Positions 8,941 to 55,089 of a stretch of 55,089 nt of DNA are shown here, piece by piece. The notes under the pieces are model-generated. The model ran no database searches. It saw only the letters and a list, made by a program, of their open reading frames with translations, and was not told where the DNA came from. Origin of the DNA: Patescibacteria group bacterium UBA926. GTDB lineage: Bacteria > Patescibacteriota > Doudnabacteria > UBA920. Position 1 is the stretch's first letter. Each line of letters begins with the position of its first letter. The position numbers were made by a program, and so were the translations under genes. Location: the NCBI GenBank assembly GCA_002293685.1, contig DBDS01000004.1, positions 100,479-155,567 of the forward strand. Reading direction: 5' to 3'.

Positions 8941-8968
8941 AACCGCTTTCAGTGAAGCGGTTTTTTTG
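8941..8968 (+). terminator. rho-independent terminator after greA
   Basis: The ACCGCTT/AAGCGGT stem is followed by a T7 tract. Confidence 0.8.
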
Positions 8969-22382: not shown

Positions 22383-22506
22383 GTTAAGAAAATTTAAACC
22401 CCCGCGAAGGCGGGGATCCACAAAATGAATACCGTAAGGGATTTTGTTTTTTTACCCCGCCTGTGTTTTTTAAACCCCCGCTAACGCGGGAGGTTTTGTA
22501 TAAGTA

Positions 22507-22620
22507 GTGGCACAAGTGATATCTTTCGTCGAGCCGCAGGGCTACGCTTCAAGTAATTTTCTTTAGAAAATTACTTGAGCTGGGCCCAGAGCCTCTCCTT
22601 TAAGATATCCCTTGCACCAC
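22507..22620. ncRNA. candidate structured RNA or MITE-like unit bounded by a 19-bp (16 paired) inverted repeat
   Basis: GTGGCACAAGTGATATCTT (22507-22525) pairs with AAGATATCCCTTGCACCAC (22602-22620). It encloses a perfect 12-bp hairpin at 22550-22577. Confidence 0.3.
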
Positions 22621-22671
22621 TTAAAAGAGAGGGGAAGAAGAATGTATTTCTCTTCCCATCACTTTTATTTA

Positions 22672-22775
22672 GCCAGTAGGTTTGCAGAGTGAAATCCTTT
22701 GGGCACAGTACGCCCAAATCGCTTTGCGATTTGAAGTGGACGTAGCCCAACAGATTGAGCGGCAAACCTACTGGC
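22672..22775. ncRNA. candidate structured RNA or MITE-like unit bounded by a perfect 14-bp inverted repeat
   Basis: GCCAGTAGGTTTGC (22672-22685) pairs with GCAAACCTACTGGC (22762-22775). The inner hairpins are 22698-22718 and 22718-22730. Confidence 0.3.
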
Positions 22776-22782
22776 GAATATC

Positions 22783-22806
22783 CAAAACCCCCGCGTCAGC
22801 GGGGGT
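22783..22806 (-). terminator. terminator after rmlA
   Basis: The CCCCCGC/GCGGGGG stem is followed by UUUU on the minus strand. Confidence 0.7.
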
Positions 22807-22816
22807 TAAATTAAAA

Positions 22817-34912: not shown

Positions 34913-36805
34913 ATGATTACAAATAAACTCAAACTTATTGCTTTAGTAACGGTCTTGGTGACACCGTTATTATTACCAAACTCAGCTTTAGCTGCGTTAC
35001 CTGTAAGTCGCGATTTTAATCCAAACAATCTTATTTCGGATAGCGATTTCCGGAACTCTCGTTCCATGAATGGAGCTGCAGCTATTCAGAAGTTTTTGCA
35101 AGATAAAAATAGTATCCTTGCGAACACAAATAGTTCTTTTACTTCACTATTGAAAGAACCTGTTGGTAACTCTTCTTTAAAAACCACTCTTGAGGATCCA
35201 TCTACAAACAATACAACTCCTCGTTCTGCAGCAGAATTGATTTGGGATGCTAGTGCGCATAGTGGAATTAACCCGCAAGTTATTCTAGTCAAGCTTCACA
35301 AAGAACAAAGTTTAATCGGTGGTCATCATGGCTCAGCACCAGATAGATTGCAACGTGCATTAGATTTCTCGATGGGATTCGGTTGTCCTGACACTGCACC
35401 TTGTGGAGAATTGTACCGTGGCTTTTATTATCAATTATTCGGAAATGTTGACGCTGAGAACAACCGTTATTTGGGTGCAGCAAAATCTTTGATGCGTTCA
35501 CTTGAAACTCCAGGTGGTCGCGGCCCATTTTATAATGGGAAAGTGTCAAAAGTTGGTGATGTAATTGTTTTATCAAACACCCTTGGAGGTTATGAAGGAG
35601 TTCAATCTCAACAAACTATTACATTAGCAAACTCCGCAACAGCCGCTTTATATCGATACACTCCTCACGTGTTCAACGGAAACTATAATTTTTGGCGTTA
35701 CATGAATGAGTGGTTTGGTAGTGGCCGCACCACAGTAGACACCGGTCCACAAGTATTCGATAACGGAAGCATTGTAGAATACAATCGTGAGTATTTCATG
35801 ATACAGGATGGGAAGCGATTGGCAATTTCGGATTTCGTTATGAAAGCCCGAAACATCAATCCAAAATTCAGCAGTGCCGGTACTTTAAGCCGACGTGATG
35901 CAAGTTCTTATCCAGAAGAAGGCCGTCTTGGGTTAATGGACAACACTGTTGTGAAAACCGAGCAAGGTTATTACGTATTTGTTGGAAATAAAATCTTTGC
36001 AGCAACCGAAGCTTTATTAGCACAACGTGGCTTATCTGTATTCACAGCACTTACTGCAAAGCAAAGTGATATCCAGGACTTTGAAGACGGGGGATTATTG
36101 CCACCACAAGAAGGTTCTGTTCTTCGTGGTGTAAATGGTCCTGCTGTTTACGTGGTAGAAAATGCACAGCTTAGATTAGTTTCCGCGTTAGTGTTCGCAC
36201 AACGCAATCTTGCCGGAAAAGTTCAGATTATTCCTGATGCAGAATTAGATAAGTATCCAAAAGGTGGTTTTGTACCGCCGCTTGATGGCACAATGGTAAA
36301 GTCTCCAAGCGATCCAACCGTTTCTCTAATCGCAGATAGAATCAAACGACCAATTCCGAGTGTGTTAGTGTTTAAAACTTACGGAAAGACTTTTGCTGAC
36401 ATCCAAACAATTAGTGATGATGAATTAACCGCAATTCCGACTGGCGCTTTAGCAGAAGCTAGGGATAATACTTATTATCGAGTATCTGATAATAACGAGT
36501 TGTATGTTTTCCGAAACGGTTCACGTCACTTTATTTCAGCTTTTGTTGCGCGTCAGCGAGGTATCACTCCCGATGTAACTTTCACAGCAGCAGAAGTTTC
36601 CAGTTGGCCAGAAGGCGAGCCAATTTTACCTAAAGATGGAACGCTTATCAAAGCAAACAACAGTCCTGCGGTATACATTGTCGAAGGTGGTCAGTTTAAA
36701 GCGTTGTCTGGTGAATCTTTCAAATCAAGAGGCTTGAGTTTCTCTAACGTCAATTCAGTTCCTGCTGCAGAGATGGATAAGTATATCGCAGCTCAAGCAA
36801 GTTAA
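34913..36805 (+). CDS. secreted protein with six copies of the same ~58-aa repeat module
   Basis: It has a signal peptide (LLLPNSALAALP) and an N-terminal globular region, followed by six repeats such as PPLDGTMVKSPSDPTVSLIADRIKRPI and KDGTLIKANNSPAVYIVEGGQFKAL. Confidence 0.65.
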   Translation: MITNKLKLIALVTVLVTPLLLPNSALAALPVSRDFNPNNLISDSDFRNSRSMNGAAAIQKFLQDKNSILANTNSSFTSLLKEPVGNSSLKTTLEDPSTNNTTPRSAAELIWDASAHSGINPQVILVKLHKEQSLIGGHHGSAPDRLQRALDFSMGFGCPDTAPCGELYRGFYYQLFGNVDAENNRYLGAAKSLMRSLETPGGRGPFYNGKVSKVGDVIVLSNTLGGYEGVQSQQTITLANSATAALYRYTPHVFNGNYNFWRYMNEWFGSGRTTVDTGPQVFDNGSIVEYNREYFMIQDGKRLAISDFVMKARNINPKFSSAGTLSRRDASSYPEEGRLGLMDNTVVKTEQGYYVFVGNKIFAATEALLAQRGLSVFTALTAKQSDIQDFEDGGLLPPQEGSVLRGVNGPAVYVVENAQLRLVSALVFAQRNLAGKVQIIPDAELDKYPKGGFVPPLDGTMVKSPSDPTVSLIADRIKRPIPSVLVFKTYGKTFADIQTISDDELTAIPTGALAEARDNTYYRVSDNNELYVFRNGSRHFISAFVARQRGITPDVTFTAAEVSSWPEGEPILPKDGTLIKANNSPAVYIVEGGQFKALSGESFKSRGLSFSNVNSVPAAEMDKYIAAQAS

Positions 36806-43554: not shown

Positions 43555-44052
43555 ATGTATACTAAGAACCCCAAAATAGGTAGAATTAGATATATGTGGA
43601 AGAAAAGAAGACTATTATACTTACTCTCGAAACTAGAGAATAGGATTATTGAAGACGCTCATTCATTATTTCTGGGGAATGTAGCATATGAAAAAGGTGT
43701 GGATTCTGTAAGACTTATGTTGTTTTATATTCAGTATAATAAATGGTATTGGTTATTGCTTTTTAGTGTAGGTGTTGTGAGGGAGGGAGGATTAACCGTG
43801 AGCTATCGAGAGTATGAAAGGTCTAGATTAAAATACAAAAGATTGATAAAGGAATTAGACTCAGAATATATTGAGATATCTAATATAGGGGCGAGCGAAT
43901 ATGTAAGGATTTCTCCTATAGGTGAGGAATATATAAAGCCCTTATATTTCTGGACTGCTGTATTAGAGAAGTTTAAAATATGGCAAATTGTACTATTCTC
44001 AATACCAATAGGTCTTGTTATTAGGGAGATATACGAATACATTAGTAAATAG
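43555..44052 (+). CDS. hypothetical membrane protein (accessory island)
   Basis: It is a 165-aa ORF with a weak RBS (AGGGTGG) and two hydrophobic segments. It has no recognisable domain. Confidence 0.4.
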   Translation: MYTKNPKIGRIRYMWKKRRLLYLLSKLENRIIEDAHSLFLGNVAYEKGVDSVRLMLFYIQYNKWYWLLLFSVGVVREGGLTVSYREYERSRLKYKRLIKELDSEYIEISNIGASEYVRISPIGEEYIKPLYFWTAVLEKFKIWQIVLFSIPIGLVIREIYEYISK

Positions 44053-44160
44053 GTGTGGATAATTGATATGTCAAAATGTATCTAATTGATATATAATAGA
44101 TATATCATAGAGTTCTTTCCCAATGAAAGAAGAAATAGAAACAAATGTAGATATGAATAA

Positions 44161-44195
44161 ATAAAAGAAAAACCCGCTTGTTTATAACAAACAGG
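44161..44195 (-). terminator. minus-strand terminator after the tRNA-like gene
   Basis: The stem 44173-44180/44188-44195 has two C-A mismatches on the plus strand that are G-U on the minus strand. A U-rich tract follows on the minus strand. Confidence 0.6.
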
Positions 44196-44273
44196 TTGAC
44201 TTTTATTTTTGTATGGTTATATAATAAGCTTCTTGCTTTTATTGCCTAGACGCTAGGTAAGTTGATTGTTAAT

Positions 44274-44366
44274 TGGTACTGATATCCAGATTCGAACTGG
44301 AATCTCTTCCTACGACGGAATACCACTTTACTAGAGTGTTGTTTTATCCAATTAAACTATATCAGC
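44274..44366 (-). tRNA. type II (long variable arm) tRNA-like gene with encoded CCA; formal anticodon AGU; identity uncertain
   Basis: The reverse complement folds as GCTGATA/TATCAGT acceptor (G1-U72), GTTT-AATTGGATA-AAAC D arm and ACACT-CTAGTAA-AGTGG anticodon arm. It continues with a 21-nt variable arm, a TCCAG-TTCGAAT-CTGGA T arm, A73 and CCA. Confidence 0.7.
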
Positions 44367-44535
44367 TGAACAACTTACCTAGCGTCTGAGCAACAAATGC
44401 TCACAGTATTTCTTTTTCTTTTATCTCTAAGTTTTCTCAGTGGCTACAAGGGGATAACTGATTAAAAGTGGTACAACATTTCTTATTGTGTTTTAAACAA
44501 TAACCTGAAATGAGGTTAGAATCGGAAGCGTCTTA

Positions 44536-44676
44536 CTAACGCTTCTTTTTTTTGTTCGTGTAAGCTGGGAATTTCCACCATCCACCGTTTTTGCGATATA
44601 CGGTTTTGCCGTTACGCACTACGAATGGACAGTATATAAACCCGTCTCTAAAGAAGCAATGATTTGGATTTCCCAT
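44536..44676 (-). CDS. possible small basic protein (46 aa, MGNPNHCFFRDGFIYCPFVVRNGKTVYRKNGGWWKFPAYTNKKKKR)
   Basis: It was hand-translated and is below the ORF-track cutoff. AAGGGAG lies 6 nt upstream of the ATG. It lies inside a 17-bp inverted-repeat bracket. Confidence 0.3.
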   Translation of the reverse strand: MGNPNHCFFRDGFIYCPFVVRNGKTVYRKNGGWWKFPAYTNKKKKR

Positions 44677-44760
44677 ATCATACTCCCTTCTGCCTGTCGT
44701 TACCGGTTAGGCATCCCTTGCAACCGTGTTGTAGCCACTGAGAAAGCTCAAAGATATTAC

Positions 44761-44870
44761 AAAACCGTTCTAAAGCCAACGCTTTGGGAATTAATAAAGG
44801 CAAAACTTAATCCCCAAGTTAGGGCTTGAGGGATAAAAATATCCCCAAAGCGCCAGCTTCAAAACGGTTT
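44761..44870 (-). ncRNA. long RNA hairpin (27-bp outer helix) in the leader of a minus-strand transcription unit
   Basis: The arms are 44761-44788 and 44844-44870. All five mismatches are A-C or C-A on the plus strand and G-U on the minus strand. Confidence 0.55.
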
Positions 44871-44941
44871 CACTCCTGGTTAGTGTATTGGCTATTCGAC
44901 CCTAATCGAATTTAATTTATAAAGGTACTACAACTAGAATA

Positions 44942-44950
44942 ATTATAACA
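44942..44950 (-). promoter_or_regulatory. extended -10 (TGTTATAAT on the minus strand) for the structured RNA / small ORF / tRNA-like unit
   Basis: This was read directly. It lies just downstream of the minus-strand terminator at 45041-45068. Confidence 0.4.
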
Positions 44951-45040
44951 TGACACTATCTCAGTCCTGCAAATAGAAAAAAATAAAATAACTTGGCTCA
45001 GTTATGGCACTTTTTACTTTCTTGGAAAATATATCCACAA

Positions 45041-45068
45041 AATTGAAAAGCCCTCGTCCTAACGAGGG
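45041..45068 (-). terminator. minus-strand terminator after the transposase remnant
   Basis: The CCCTCGT/ACGAGGG stem is followed by CUUUUCAAUU on the minus strand. Confidence 0.55.
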
Positions 45069-45163: not shown

Positions 45164-45425
45164 CTATTGGCGAACCATACGGTTTAAAAGCACCGAGAAA
45201 ATTGGAAAAGGAGAGCGAGAGTGAGTTAGACGAAAGCTAAACTCGTTTAGATAGCCTTGTAGATACTTAGGCGAAACCCTGTGATAAGTGCCATCTATTG
45301 ATTGCTTAATTTGAGAGAAGAACCCCTCAACTGAGTTAGTATGAACTACACCAAAAGCGTATTCTTTCTTGCTTTAAAGGTATGGTTGGACCGAGTGTTG
45401 TTGATAACTCTTATTGAACGAATGT
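45164..45425 (-). pseudogene. IS1595-family (ISXO2-like) transposase remnant, C-terminal part only
   Basis: The start-less open frame 45164-45373 reads SKKEYAFGVVHTNSVEGFFSQIKQSIDGTYHRVSPKYLQGYLNEFSFRLTHSRSPFPIFSVLLNRMVRQ*. This matches the HTNxxEGFWSxxKR...YHxVSxKxLxxYLxEFxFRxNxR signature. The upstream part is out of frame or absent. Confidence 0.6.
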
Positions 45426-45478: not shown

Positions 45479-46507
45479 ATGAAATTAATTTCATTATTCT
45501 CAGGTTGCGGTGGTCTTGATCGAGGTTTTGAAAATGCCGGATTCAATGTAGTTTGGGCAAATGAATATGATAAGACCATTTGGGAGACTTTTCAAAAAAA
45601 CTTTCCTCACACCTATTTAGATACGAATGACATTAGGAATGTGAAGTCGGACTCTGTACCAGAAGCTTTAGGGATCATTGGTGGACCTCCTTGCCAGAGT
45701 TGGAGCCTTGCTGGTTCCATGCGAGGTATTGATGATCACAGAGGTCAATTGTTCTACGAATATTTGAGGCTGTTAAAGGATAAAAAGCCTTTGTTTTTTC
45801 TAGCTGAAAATGTAGCTGGTTTGATATCTTCCGCTCATCGGTCCAGCTTTGACAATATAATTGAATCATTTTCGGAGATAGGCTATAACGTCTCGTTTAA
45901 GCTATTAAATGCGGCTCATTACGATGTACCGGAAGACAGGTTGAGGGTTATAATAGTCGGATATAGAAAAAATGTTGTCAAAAAGTTTTTTGAGTTTCCA
46001 GAGCCTAGTAATACTCGTTTAAATTTACATCATGCTATAGGTGACTTACCAAAAGCTATTCCTGCAAAAGAAAAAAATAAGACGAACGGTTTGTATAGAA
46101 CAATTTTGCCAAATCATGAATATATGATCGGTGGTTTCTCAACAATGTATATGTCCCGAAATCGTAAGCGAAATTGGGATCAGCCTTCTTTTACAATTCA
46201 AGCTGGTGGTAGGCATGCTCCTTTGCATCCATCGGGTCCTCCAATGGAAAAATTAGGAGCTGATAAATGGATATTTAAAAAAGGAAGCGAATCTAAATAC
46301 CGTCGCTTATCAGTGAGGGAATGTGCCCGAATTCAAACTTTCCCAGATGACCATATTTTTTATTATAACGATGTAGCTGATGGTTATAAAATGATCGGCA
46401 ACGCGGTACCGGTAAAATTTGCCGAAGCTATAGCTAAGGCGATAAAAGTAGATATAGAACCATTTGTTGCTCAGACCTCAAAAGCTAAGTTAAAAGTTGT
46501 TATTTAA
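45479..46507 (+). CDS. DNA (cytosine-5)-methyltransferase, HaeIII-like
   Basis: It has motif I FSGCGGLDRGF, motif IV GGPPCQSWS, motif VI ENVAGL, motif VIII RVIIVG, QTFPDD and motif X GNAVPV. The variable region (KNKTNG..PNHEY..MSRNR) resembles M.HaeIII as I recall it. Confidence 0.9.
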   Translation: MKLISLFSGCGGLDRGFENAGFNVVWANEYDKTIWETFQKNFPHTYLDTNDIRNVKSDSVPEALGIIGGPPCQSWSLAGSMRGIDDHRGQLFYEYLRLLKDKKPLFFLAENVAGLISSAHRSSFDNIIESFSEIGYNVSFKLLNAAHYDVPEDRLRVIIVGYRKNVVKKFFEFPEPSNTRLNLHHAIGDLPKAIPAKEKNKTNGLYRTILPNHEYMIGGFSTMYMSRNRKRNWDQPSFTIQAGGRHAPLHPSGPPMEKLGADKWIFKKGSESKYRRLSVRECARIQTFPDDHIFYYNDVADGYKMIGNAVPVKFAEAIAKAIKVDIEPFVAQTSKAKLKVVI

Positions 46508-46572
46508 TTAGTCGCATATAATAGCGGTAAATTGTAAAGAATGCTAAACTGCGTGTAAGTTTAGTATTTTTT

Positions 46573-47454
46573 ATGCCACAATCAAACCAATCAGGAAGAA
46601 CTTTAGAATATGCAATAGTTGCAGTGATAATAAGTAATCACCCTAAGGATAAAATTGAATTATCCGCCCGTTTGGTGAATAACCAAAAAAAAGATCAGGT
46701 AAGTTTTTTGGCATTACCTGAAAAGGTACGGCTACAGCATATGAAGTATGCATCGATTGTATATCAATGGCTTAGCGATGATTTCAGAATTTCTCAAAAA
46801 GAAATTGTATTGGACAGAATGTCGGATGTTGATGCAAAATACGGAGACGTTACCGATATAAGAATAACTATGGATGGATCTAACCTCAATCTTTCAGTCA
46901 AGCATAATCATTTTGCATTGAAACACCAAAGACCATCTACTACTGCTATTAGATGTGGGTTTGCGCCTAAGTCCAAAGAAGATTTGGAATTTAGAAAGGA
47001 CTTGGGAAATATTACCGGTGCCTTTATAATTAATTCATCAAAAGATTATCCCGATGCTACACTGTTTAATGAAATAAAATCACAATCACCGACTTATATT
47101 AATAAAAATTTATATTTCCCGGTATGTAACCTAATTTCTGGTTTTATAAATAAGTATTCAGACCGAATAAACGTTGTCACACTCTTTAAATTTTTGGTAG
47201 GAGACACTGATTTCTATAAGGTAACAGCATTTAAGAAGCAAATTGTTATTGAGGAGTTCGCTAGACTTCAAAAGCCTACTTCGGTGACAACGAGACTTAA
47301 AGGTGATAGCTATATAATCTTAAATTTTTCAAATGGATGGGATATTAGTTTACGTTTACACACGGCGTCTTCAAAGATTGGAAAAAATCCAAGCCTGAAA
47401 TTTGATACTCTATTAATTAATTCGGATATGCCTAGTAAGTATATTAATGTATAA
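46573..47454 (+). CDS. putative type II restriction endonuclease partner (PD-(D/E)xK-like)
   Basis: It lies immediately downstream of the C5 methyltransferase. The candidate catalytic motif is GDVTDIRIT...NLNLSVKHN. No other domain was recognised. Confidence 0.6.
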   Translation: MPQSNQSGRTLEYAIVAVIISNHPKDKIELSARLVNNQKKDQVSFLALPEKVRLQHMKYASIVYQWLSDDFRISQKEIVLDRMSDVDAKYGDVTDIRITMDGSNLNLSVKHNHFALKHQRPSTTAIRCGFAPKSKEDLEFRKDLGNITGAFIINSSKDYPDATLFNEIKSQSPTYINKNLYFPVCNLISGFINKYSDRINVVTLFKFLVGDTDFYKVTAFKKQIVIEEFARLQKPTSVTTRLKGDSYIILNFSNGWDISLRLHTASSKIGKNPSLKFDTLLINSDMPSKYINV

Positions 47455-47595
47455 GAATAATACTTGATTGGTCTGGATATGGCATGAGGTGTTCCATTAA
47501 TCCCTTTACAAACATAGCTTACCAATACTGGGTTAATTATATGTTCGCCTGCCTAGATCTCAAAATTAATCAAAATATTCATTAACAAAATACAT

Positions 47596-48051
47596 ATGCA
47601 AAAAATACATCAATCAATCACAATCAACGCGCCTGTAGCAAAAGTATGGGATGCGATGCTGGGCAAGGGCACTTACGAAGAATGGACAGCAATGTTCAAT
47701 CCCGGTTCTCGGTATGAAGGCGACTGGAGTGAGGGCTCGAAGATTCTCTTCATCGGACCGAGTGGTGACGGCACCGACGGTGAAAGCGGAATGGTTAGCA
47801 GAATTGCTGTTAATAAACCTCATGAATTCATTTCCATAGAGCACTTGGGAATTTACGCTAATGGAGTAGAGGATACCACAAGTGAAGAAGCTAAGAAGTG
47901 GTCTCCGGCTTTCGAAAATTATACTTTCTCGGAAACAGATGGCGTTACTACTGTCACCATCGATCAAGATATTGAAGATGAATACAAGGAAGAATTCGAA
48001 GCGATGTGGAAGAAAGCTTTAGCGAAGCTTAAAGAAATTTGCGAGAGATAA
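47596..48051 (+). CDS. SRPBCC/AHSA1 (START-like) family protein
   Basis: The N-terminus SITINAPVAKVWDAMLGKGTYEEW is typical of Aha1/BPI-like SRPBCC domains. It is 151 aa. Confidence 0.75.
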   Translation: MQKIHQSITINAPVAKVWDAMLGKGTYEEWTAMFNPGSRYEGDWSEGSKILFIGPSGDGTDGESGMVSRIAVNKPHEFISIEHLGIYANGVEDTTSEEAKKWSPAFENYTFSETDGVTTVTIDQDIEDEYKEEFEAMWKKALAKLKEICER

Positions 48052-50974: not shown

Positions 50975-51514
50975 ATGAATAATGGCTTGAAAACAGCAGT
51001 TTTTGCAGGGGGCTGTTTCTGGTGCACTGAAGCGGTTTATCAGAAGCTACGTGGCGTTACTGAAGTTATTCCAGGGTATACTGGTGGTCAGACGCAGAAC
51101 CCAACTTACGAGCAAGTTTCGAGTGGAGCAACAGGACACGCCGAAGCCATTCAATTTACTTTTGATCCCGGGCAAATTAGTTACGAAGATTTATTAAACG
51201 TGTTTTTCGCGACTCACGACCCGACTACATTGAATCGACAAGGAAATGACGTGGGCCCTCAATACCGCTCCGTCATTTTTTACACAAATGATGAACAGAA
51301 ACAACAAGCCGAAAAATTCGTTGCACAGTTAAGCGAAGATAAAGTTTTTCCCAATCCAATTGTTACTACAATTGAACCGCTAGGCGAATTTTACGAAGCA
51401 GAGGATTATCATAAAAATTATTACGAACGAAATTCAGGACAAGCATATTGTCAGTTAGTAATTTCACCCAAACTACATAAACTAAAAGAAAAGTTTGCGT
51501 CATTAATAAACTAA
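50975..51514 (+). CDS. msrA: peptide-methionine (S)-S-oxide reductase
   Basis: It has the GGCFWCTEAVY active site, HDPTTLNRQGNDVGPQYRS and EDYHKNYY. Confidence 0.9.
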   Translation: MNNGLKTAVFAGGCFWCTEAVYQKLRGVTEVIPGYTGGQTQNPTYEQVSSGATGHAEAIQFTFDPGQISYEDLLNVFFATHDPTTLNRQGNDVGPQYRSVIFYTNDEQKQQAEKFVAQLSEDKVFPNPIVTTIEPLGEFYEAEDYHKNYYERNSGQAYCQLVISPKLHKLKEKFASLIN

Positions 51515-54999: not shown

Positions 55000-55089
55000 A
55001 TTTTTAAGATTAATTGTATATACATTATAGCACTATATTTTTCGAGTTATTTGTGGAGATTATTATACTACGTATTCTTAACAATAGCT

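Follow-up and report, generated by a model that had tools for sequence, protein, structure and literature searches.

We analysed a 55,089-nucleotide stretch of contig DBDS01000004.1 from Patescibacteria group bacterium UBA926 (the window, hereafter), an organism from bioreactor sludge with a genome of ~1 Mb, and studied a hairpin, H1, encoded on its minus strand at 44761-44871. H1 is the first of three long helices (H1, S2 and S3) lying in one minus-strand unit of ~770 nt, and these three, side by side, are also the top three inverted repeats of the whole window. Read in the sense direction, the unit, or cassette, is made of a promoter, a small leader hairpin (H0), H1, S2 drawn around the ribosome-binding site and gene of a microprotein, S3 drawn around a tRNA, and a terminator. 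When folded as a whole (781 nt), the unit reaches a z-score of -13.7. The features of the locus, from the transposase remnant upstream of the cassette to the convergent promoter at its end, are as follows:

45170-45364, minus strand: last ~65 codons of an IS1595-family transposase, all that remains of the gene (tblastn, query: intact transposase of related locus L214)
45051-45068, minus strand: terminator-like hairpin 3' of the transposase remnant (consensus scan)
44942-44950, minus strand: extended -10 promoter TGTTATAAT, identified by sequence, with a predicted transcription start near 44935
44895-44910, minus strand: H0, small hairpin of the 5' leader (UUCGAUUAGGGUCGAA), from the fold of the whole unit
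44761-44871, minus strand: H1, a 31-bp basal helix and an apical part with two possible folds, then a U-rich tract
44729-44764, minus strand: S2 5' arm, long-range helix around the microprotein gene (inverted repeat I1, 36 nt)
44536-44676, minus strand: microprotein gene, 46 amino acids, GGGAG ribosome-binding site (open reading frame call and relatives)
44414-44449, minus strand: S2 3' arm (inverted repeat I1)
44371-44400, minus strand: S3 5' arm, helix around the tRNA (inverted repeat I2, 30 nt)
44274-44366, minus strand: tRNA, 93 nt (ARAGORN; Rfam tRNA model, 52.3 bits)
44235-44264, minus strand: S3 3' arm (inverted repeat I2)
44171-44197, minus strand: predicted intrinsic terminator closing the sense unit, its 12-bp stem including two G-U pairs, then a U run
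44524-44554, plus strand: predicted antisense-strand intrinsic terminator, stem and T8, overlapping the 3' end of the microprotein gene
44196-44225, plus strand: convergent antisense promoter TTGACT-18-TATAAT, scoring 11/12 and pointing into the cassette

The original prediction, which concerned the hairpin at 44761-44870, had placed it downstream of the promoter at 44950-44942 and upstream of a small open reading frame (ORF), which we find at 44676-44536; both neighbours are confirmed. It had missed that three consecutive helices follow one another, that the small ORF is a conserved microprotein gene and that the whole unit is carried by a decayed IS1595-family transposon.

H1 fold and strand asymmetry in the window

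In the minimum free energy structure of the minus strand, 44870-44844 pairs with 44762-44788 over 27 positions, with 22 Watson-Crick pairs, five G-U pairs (44862/44770, 44860/44772, 44855/44777, 44854/44778 and 44853/44779) and zero mismatches. On the plus strand the same five positions are A-C mismatches, exactly as first described. The full uninterrupted basal helix is longer and counts 31 bp, from 44871/44761 to 44841/44791, of which 24 are Watson-Crick and seven G-U. The 9-bp apical stem with a bulged U, also part of the original prediction, is present in the minimum free energy structure (44834-44825 with 44810-44818). A second fold of the apical part, with two tandem hairpins, lies 0.7 kcal/mol above the minimum and agrees with the Y shape of the family described below. 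The minus-strand fold of 44876-44755 has an energy of -56.2 kcal/mol, against a shuffle mean of -28.6 (z = -8.1; 0 of 200 shuffles as stable), whereas the plus-strand fold reaches only -40.2 kcal/mol (z = -5.1) and is interrupted by three internal loops at the A-C mismatches.

The wobble pattern had been presented as direct sequence evidence for an RNA transcribed from the minus strand. This was overstated, as five wobbles in one sequence correspond to a p of ~0.03. In H1 alone, the minus strand is favoured at all seven non-Watson-Crick positions of the transition type (p = 0.016, two-sided binomial test), two of these being terminal pairs selected by the fold itself; when the four helices of the unit are pooled, the ratio is 13 to 2 for the minus strand (p = 0.007). 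The same asymmetry had been reported for the terminator at 44173-44195, and the 44197-44171 stem does hold two minus-strand G-U pairs. We also considered a mutational origin. The GC skew of the window is positive on the plus strand and, given this skew, a replication-linked C-to-T bias would be expected to create G-T on the plus strand and not, as observed, on the minus strand. Altogether, the strand asymmetry within the single window sequence is moderately significant and suggestive, and it becomes compelling only together with the related loci.

H1 is single-copy: no second copy was found in the window, and one contig per ~1-Mb genome assembly matches it at a likeness of at least 80%. Likewise, a test for miniature inverted-repeat transposable elements (MITEs) or dispersed repeats did not find multiple near-identical copies in the assemblies or in the window. 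A second match to the helix filter, at 47502-47605, was a false positive without a real fold (z = +0.5). The sequencing runs of the window organism are all identical and provided no sequence variation for comparison. An AGGAG at 44880-44884 (minus strand) stands 9 nt upstream of a UUG, the start of a 23-codon ORF passing through the H1 5' arm and apical part (~44866-44795). This ORF is absent from the other loci and is probably fortuitous; leader-peptide attenuation was dropped on the grounds that it is not conserved.

S2 pairs over 36 positions with four non-pairs, its inner 28 positions holding one A-C only, and S3 pairs over 30 positions with two non-pairs. As for the promoter upstream of H1, the motif TGNTATAAT is found 11 times in the window, and seven of these sites lie upstream of a long same-strand ORF, at a distance of 15-50 nt. 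Since it mostly stands just before ORF starts, we regard it as a credible working promoter motif of this genome. Extended -10 motifs of this kind, located at 8967, 28325, 32044, 34895, 37200 and 50960 (plus strand) and at 55032 (minus strand), precede ORF starts; three of them (34895 before the ORF at 34913, 37200 before 37216 and 50960 before 50975) are so closely spaced to the ORF as to imply leaderless or near-leaderless mRNAs. On the opposite strand, the convergent promoter at 44196-44225 is among only six sites scoring at least 11/12 in the window. Together with the plus-strand terminator, it predicts an antisense RNA of ~320 nt that would run across the tRNA, S3, the S2 3' arm and the end of the microprotein gene.

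Conservation of H1 and of the microprotein gene

An exhaustive phmmer search with the 46-residue microprotein returned 24 small proteins at E < 1e-3. Related loci were collected by a search with the microprotein profile, fetching the corresponding contigs, and two further loci came from a metagenome scan, giving 11 independent related loci. Ten of the 11 with usable sequence (L214, L215, L218, L219, L220, L225, L227, L228, L230 and L231) carry a hairpin of 100-135 nt located 35-140 nt upstream of the microprotein gene and on the strand of this gene; with the window, this makes 11 loci with H1. Another locus, L226, holds a run of N.

The proteins share the core Q.CF..DG....CNFV.RNGK.I..K.G.WLRFP, followed by a lysine-rich tail, and the microprotein is basic, beta-rich and devoid of a hydrophobic helix. 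AlphaFold, when given the alignment, proposes a five-strand all-beta model with a pLDDT of 76.7; the single-sequence model is poor. Comparison of the core between L230 and L231 revealed 14 synonymous against one non-synonymous codon differences, that is, purifying selection. We found no significant match of the microprotein in Pfam, PHROGs, NCBIfam, a sequence search of the Protein Data Bank (PDB) or Foldseek against the PDB, and no relative when its profile was run against viral contigs. Word-indexed protein searches matched the microprotein, and likewise a neighbouring ORF of 165 residues, to themselves only.

The basal helix of H1 spans 19-31 bp across the family and is usually topped by two or three small apical hairpins. 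In the related loci, H1 energies range from -50 to -73 kcal/mol and z-scores from -5.2 to -11.4, and in all 11 loci the sense fold is stabler than the antisense fold. The 5' arm begins with a weakly conserved AAAaCCGUUU; otherwise, the arms differ among loci. Because MAFFT alignments of full-length H1 were structurally inconsistent, we anchored the basal helix by clamps instead of building a covariance model: the basal 24 positions of ten loci were anchored by their own helix bases with artificial clamps in MAFFT, and two bulged bases were removed. In this alignment 93.3% of the cells are paired, compared with 39-47% for slid partners and 55% after shuffling, a percentage that is inflated by the fitting of the alignment to the structure. 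Of the 24 basal pairs, 22 changed on both sides, and the covariation score is 1.04, as compared to 0.17-0.25 in the controls.

The comparison of L230 with L231 is the only one free of this bias. The two H1 sequences can be aligned over 107 nt without a gap, with 17 differences: three pairs changed on both sides and stayed paired, five one-sided changes were kept through G-U, six differences fall at unpaired positions, and no pair is broken. A check by homology and covariation had been proposed together with the original prediction, and it came out in favour of the hairpin.

To count wobbles without favouring either strand, we searched for helices with equal scores for G-T and A-C. The ratio of G-U to A-C on the sense strand was 39:6 for H1, 19:12 for S2 and 13:7 for S3. 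Chance helices of this quality are rare: those with at least 22 of 24 pairs and a span of 90-146 nt amount to ~25 (collapsed from 42 raw matches) in 3.87 Mb of strand from unrelated contigs, while eight of the 11 loci hold one within the expected ~300 nt. Considering all the above results, the comparison across loci shows H1 to be a strand-specific conserved structure, predicted to act as RNA, tied to a conserved microprotein gene and with its fold held by selection. The claim of a functional minus-strand RNA therefore stands as far as the fold is concerned, which is conserved in ten related loci with compensatory change and the G-U bias; the transcription itself we infer.

The elements around H1 recur as well. 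Sense promoters scoring 10-11/12 stand upstream of H1 in L214, L215, L220, L227 and L228, a small hairpin of the H0 type appears in the leader folds of most related loci, and a long-range helix resembling S2 surrounds the microprotein gene in most of them. The 3' side of H1 is followed by a U tract (6 of 9 positions after the last G/C pair in the window; mean of 7.0 of 9 over the 11 loci; at least six in 10 of the 11), with a local T frequency near 0.29 as comparison, and the 5' end of H1 is A-rich to match. Moreover, convergent promoters scoring at least 10/12 lie within ~110 nt beyond the last helix in six of the 11 loci, namely the window (11/12), L214 (12/12), L215 (11/12) and L218, L220 and L228 (10/12 each). 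The window and L228 also have an antisense-strand terminator at the 3' end of the microprotein gene. The antisense RNA predicted from these signals would span the S2 3' arm, plus the tRNA in loci that have one.

Rfam, searched at gathering and permissive thresholds, gave no family for H1, in agreement with the earlier failure to assign it, and within the unit the tRNA alone passes. The permissive match of H1 is a generic hairpin hit of 19 bits to a plant microRNA precursor, for which the threshold is 117 bits. BLAST of the 796-nt unit returned only short chance matches among phage records and none among plasmids. Exact-pattern scans of viral contigs gave nothing with the H1 arm, and only chance matches, without a real AGU tRNA, with the S2 and S3 arms and the tRNA pattern. 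In the syntenic nearest relatives of the genome collection (metagenome-assembled genomes of Saccharibacteria, 43-64% identical in the 584-residue neighbour) the cassette is absent, and the region between the rhodanese gene and the ORF at 50975 is variable among the relatives compared. Finally, full-text searches of the literature on IS1595 in connection with tRNAs or hairpins, with passenger genes and with Patescibacteria turned up no account of such a cassette. The combination of a structured RNA, a microprotein gene and an odd tRNA is thus previously undescribed, and represents a new RNA motif and a new microprotein family.

Transposon carriage, cargo tRNAs and surroundings

The transposase remnant of the window is 47.7% identical to residues 223-287 of the L214 transposase (E = 2.7e-13), and no long ORF is found there on the minus strand. 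Transposases of the IS1595 family lie at most 1 kb from the cassette in five loci, counting the window, and are 56-63% identical to one another; Pfam PF12762 (DDE_Tnp_IS1595) was assigned to the neighbours in L214 and L218. The transposase lies upstream of the cassette and points the same way in L214, L225 and the window; in L218 and L230 it is found downstream, in convergent orientation. Cassettes without a transposase are found in L215, L219 and L231. Since the G-U bias tracks the strand of the cassette in both orientations to the transposase, this arrangement argues for a role at the level of the transcript rather than of transposition.

The left transposon end TTATCCCTTGACAACATAAT is identical in L214, L218 and L230, with matching right ends in L214 and L218 (terminal repeats of 20 nt). 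The resulting units, 1818 bp in L214 (2841-4658) and 1984 bp in L218 (3559-5542), hold transposase and cassette between inverted repeats, and each is bounded by 11-nt direct repeats (GGACAAAATCA and AAGTAATCCAC), which occur by chance in ~0.1% of random flank pairs. The structure of these units shows, at the sequence level, that the cassette is cargo of IS1595-family transposons of the Candidate Phyla Radiation (CPR)/Patescibacteria and moves inside them. In the window element we found no terminal repeat, and the window copy reads as a decayed IS1595-family element with a transposase remnant only.

Besides the ~640-nt cassette, L230 and L231 have in common only a 38-nt segment, their flanks being otherwise unrelated. 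This segment (L230 1822-1859 and L231 957-994) is 87% identical, lies ~320-490 nt upstream of the cassette and ends in GACATAAT. As it ends like the inner terminal repeat of the insertion sequence (IS), it may be a diverged transposon end. Two regions of L218 (1-3600 and 5746-8156) are phage-like, with a weak terminase match, a DUF5906 primase-helicase and an HNH protein; this context would place the IS and its cassette also on phages or prophages of these bacteria.

The tRNA of the window has the anticodon AGU (Thr), a long variable arm, G1-U72, A73, an encoded CCA and 37.6% G+C. A helix-enclosed tRNA is found in five loci including the window, with the anticodons Thr-AGU (window), Ser-UGA twice, Leu-GAG and Ala-UGC; the others lie at L225 1352-1438, L214 4389-4474, L218 4281-4369 and L227 750-822. 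Four of the five have a long variable arm. Bacterial tRNA-Ser usually has G73, and the tRNAs of L225 and L214 combine the Ser anticodon UGA with A73. Body and anticodon of the cargo tRNAs may be mismatched in identity, for which mistranslation, a different identity code in CPR bacteria and decay are alternative explanations.

In the surroundings of the cassette, a HaeIII-like restriction-modification pair (a C5 methylase, then RE_HaeIII; 45479-47454, plus strand) stands where one would expect the remainder of the IS1595 element, and the 44-48 kb stretch has 36% G+C, below its surroundings. The 165-residue ORF mentioned above (43555-44052, plus strand) adjoins the cassette within the same variable island; it has no relatives but itself in 5.8 billion proteins and no Pfam domain. 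A motif of 7-8 nt, TATCCAC(A)/GTGGATA, resembling both a DnaA box and the TTATCCC core of the IS ends, is present around the cassette in eight of 13 loci and is often palindromic just downstream of it. Its sites are at 45032-45038 and 44055-44061 in the window, L214 4573-4590, L230 2794-2821, L231 2085-2149 and L218 3040-3190. Further away, G+C-rich palindromic units (TTAAACCCCCGC...GCGGGGGTTTAA) occur in both orientations within ~400 nt at 22394-22810 and resemble repetitive extragenic palindromic (REP) elements.

Interpretation and comparison with known systems

The function that we propose for H1, with a probability of about one half, is that of a cis-acting 5' structured RNA domain of a transposon cassette, serving in processing, stability or attenuation within a module resembling type I toxin-antitoxin (TA) systems. 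The long basal duplex with its A-rich and U-rich ends, together with the U tract, gives H1 the anatomy of an attenuator or terminator. Acting in cis on its own transcript, H1 would cause part of the transcription to end in a short, stable hairpin RNA and let the rest continue into the microprotein gene. RNase III could then cut the H1, S2 and S3 duplexes to release the H1 RNA, the microprotein mRNA and a pre-tRNA, and the sense/antisense layout, with an mRNA locked between its 5' and 3' parts, would work like a type I TA module.

Several observations weigh against this proposal. H1 greatly exceeds the size of ordinary intrinsic terminators, and part of its U tract is paired with the A run on the 5' side. 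The microprotein has neither the membrane helix of typical type I toxins nor a structural match, and in L224 the gene is present with no room for H1, so that it can exist without the hairpin. Furthermore, the apical part of H1 has no sequence conservation and offers no clue to a ligand or partner, the covariation alignment carries the bias described above, and transcription, 3' ends and cleavage sites are, at every locus, deduced from the sequence.

We weighed other explanations, which we place, in order of likelihood, as an RNA partner of the microprotein, a plain terminator or insulator, a role at the DNA level and a cofactor of the transposase. H1 might be released in excess through stops at the U tract and act in trans, binding the basic, lysine-tailed microprotein to neutralise or titrate it, in the manner of a type III TA system or of a protein-sequestering small RNA. 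The conserved order of promoter, structured RNA, U tract and small protein gene would fit such a pair, as would a basic microprotein under purifying selection, the recurrence of GNRA-type loops in the apical hairpins (as read from the folds) and the carriage by transposons, where addiction modules are common. We nevertheless consider it doubtful, because H1 is a single hairpin rather than a tandem array, its loops have no conserved sequence that could serve as binding site, the protein of 45 residues is modelled as all-beta and would not be an endoribonuclease, and L224 lacks H1. It is also unlikely that H1 is punctuation only, that is, a large terminator or insulator against read-through from the transposase gene or from outside. 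The U tract after the helix in 10 of 11 loci, the A run before it and the position of H1 between transposase gene and cargo in the co-directional loci speak for this function, but in every locus H1 lies downstream of the predicted promoter of the cassette and would cut short the transcript of the cassette itself, the transposase remnant already has a small terminator of its own behind it, and a branched structure of 100-135 nt kept by compensatory change exceeds what a terminator needs.

From strand asymmetry alone, an RNA is indistinguishable from DNA of the corresponding strand, as G-T stabilises DNA hairpins too, and since the element is transposon cargo one may think of H1 as single-stranded DNA or a cruciform acting, for example, in transposition or replication. 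However, cassette and transposase point the same way in L214 and towards each other in L218, and the G-U bias goes with the microprotein gene and not with the transposon ends; a promoter and a terminator frame the hairpin on the same strand; and terminal inverted repeats, on which the DDE transposases of the IS1595 family act, are present separately from H1. These points leave a DNA-level role very little weight. Equally improbable is an RNA cofactor of the IS1595 transposase, such as a guide, bridge or regulator. Structured RNAs encoded by transposons do exist in other IS families, and related transposases lie within 1 kb in five of 11 loci, but H1 is found in both orientations to the transposase and also without one (L215, L219 and L231), its loops are not conserved and the element has ordinary terminal repeats with flanking duplications. 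As to a functionless palindrome, arisen by chance or decaying, or a MITE, the adjoining IS remnant and the modest wobble asymmetry within one sequence would have allowed it; the comparative data refute it, given the single copy, the compensatory change in ten other loci, the 39:6 strand bias and a background helix rate that is far too low. Other identities were dropped as well: an integron attC site (core sites absent), a retron (no reverse transcriptase), a transfer-messenger RNA (ARAGORN negative) and a T-box or riboswitch (no Rfam match).

Beyond the cis-acting domain that we favour, the basic microprotein could tentatively be seen as forming, with H1, the predicted convergent antisense RNA and, where present, the tRNA, a new RNA-protein accessory system of IS1595 transposons in CPR bacteria, an idea to which we attach a low probability. 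It may take the form of an addiction module, in which structured RNA and antisense RNA jointly control a non-membrane microprotein toxin, or of an RNA-microprotein complex active in transposition or host translation. Under this idea the cargo tRNAs may be functional, with long-arm A73 bodies bearing Thr or Ser anticodons that decode against identity.

The very small genomes of CPR/Patescibacteria are still little understood, and the number of non-coding RNAs described from them is low. The mobile pairing of an RNA motif with a microprotein family, genetically linked, is directly testable in a heterologous host. Should the cassette turn out to be a regulatory or addiction module, it would reveal a way in which insertion sequences maintain themselves in such small genomes; should the cargo tRNAs receive an amino acid that does not fit their anticodon, they would provide an example of deliberate mistranslation spread by a mobile element. 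Moreover, the strand-biased G-U pairs spotted in raw sequence proved here to be a valid lead.

Comparison with known systems places the cassette between several of them. With phi29 pRNA and the Y RNA YrlA, H1 shares a length of ~110-120 nt, a long helix formed by the ends and two apical hairpins, and Y RNA also comes with a tRNA-like module; unlike them, it has no Rfam match to either, and no packaging motor or Ro/Rsr gene is found nearby, save the weak terminase match of L218. Like IS10 RNA-OUT, IS200 art200, IS605 omega RNA and IS110 bridge RNA, H1 is a predicted stable structured RNA encoded within an insertion sequence. It differs from them in not being antisense to the transposase start, in its variable position and orientation, in the company of a DDE enzyme with ordinary terminal repeats and in having no conserved guide-like loops.

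The order of promoter, structured RNA, terminator-like signal and protein gene on a mobile element recalls the type III TA systems ToxIN, CptIN and TenpIN. H1 is, however, one branched hairpin and not a set of tandem repeats (a direct-repeat search gave short two-copy chance matches only; PADLOC was not searched), and the protein of ~45 residues is not a recognisable endoribonuclease. Likeness to type I TA systems (txpA/RatA, bsrG/SR4 and, for the 5'-3' pairing, hok) extends further, to a small ORF on a mobile element, an mRNA that would be enclosed by the long 5'-3' helix S2, a strong convergent promoter just downstream with an antisense-strand terminator at the 3' end of the ORF, from which an antisense RNA is predicted, and long duplexes suited to RNase III. 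The microprotein, with no hydrophobic helix, departs from the membrane peptides of these systems, and the cassette adds the large 5' hairpin and the tRNA.

The stems cut by RNase III in rRNA operons and in the polycistronic mRNAs of phage T7 are similar in that the 5' and 3' flanks of a functional RNA (mRNA and tRNA in the cassette) are paired in helices of 25-40 bp, several of which follow one another along a single precursor; here, instead, there is no rRNA, H1 encloses no gene and cleavage is predicted. With intrinsic terminators and attenuators H1 has in common a G+C-containing helix with an immediate U tract, a position between promoter and gene and, in the window, two near-isoenergetic apical folds. 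It stands apart from them by its size (100-135 nt, with a basal helix of 19-31 bp), its branched top and the lack of an identified ligand or leader-peptide logic. Overall, H1 shows the defining features of no named family in full, save the generic anatomy of a terminator, with a stable helix directly followed by a U-rich tract on the sense strand, and of an RNase III substrate, with an uninterrupted duplex of 31 bp where at least ~20 bp would be required for the putative cleavage.

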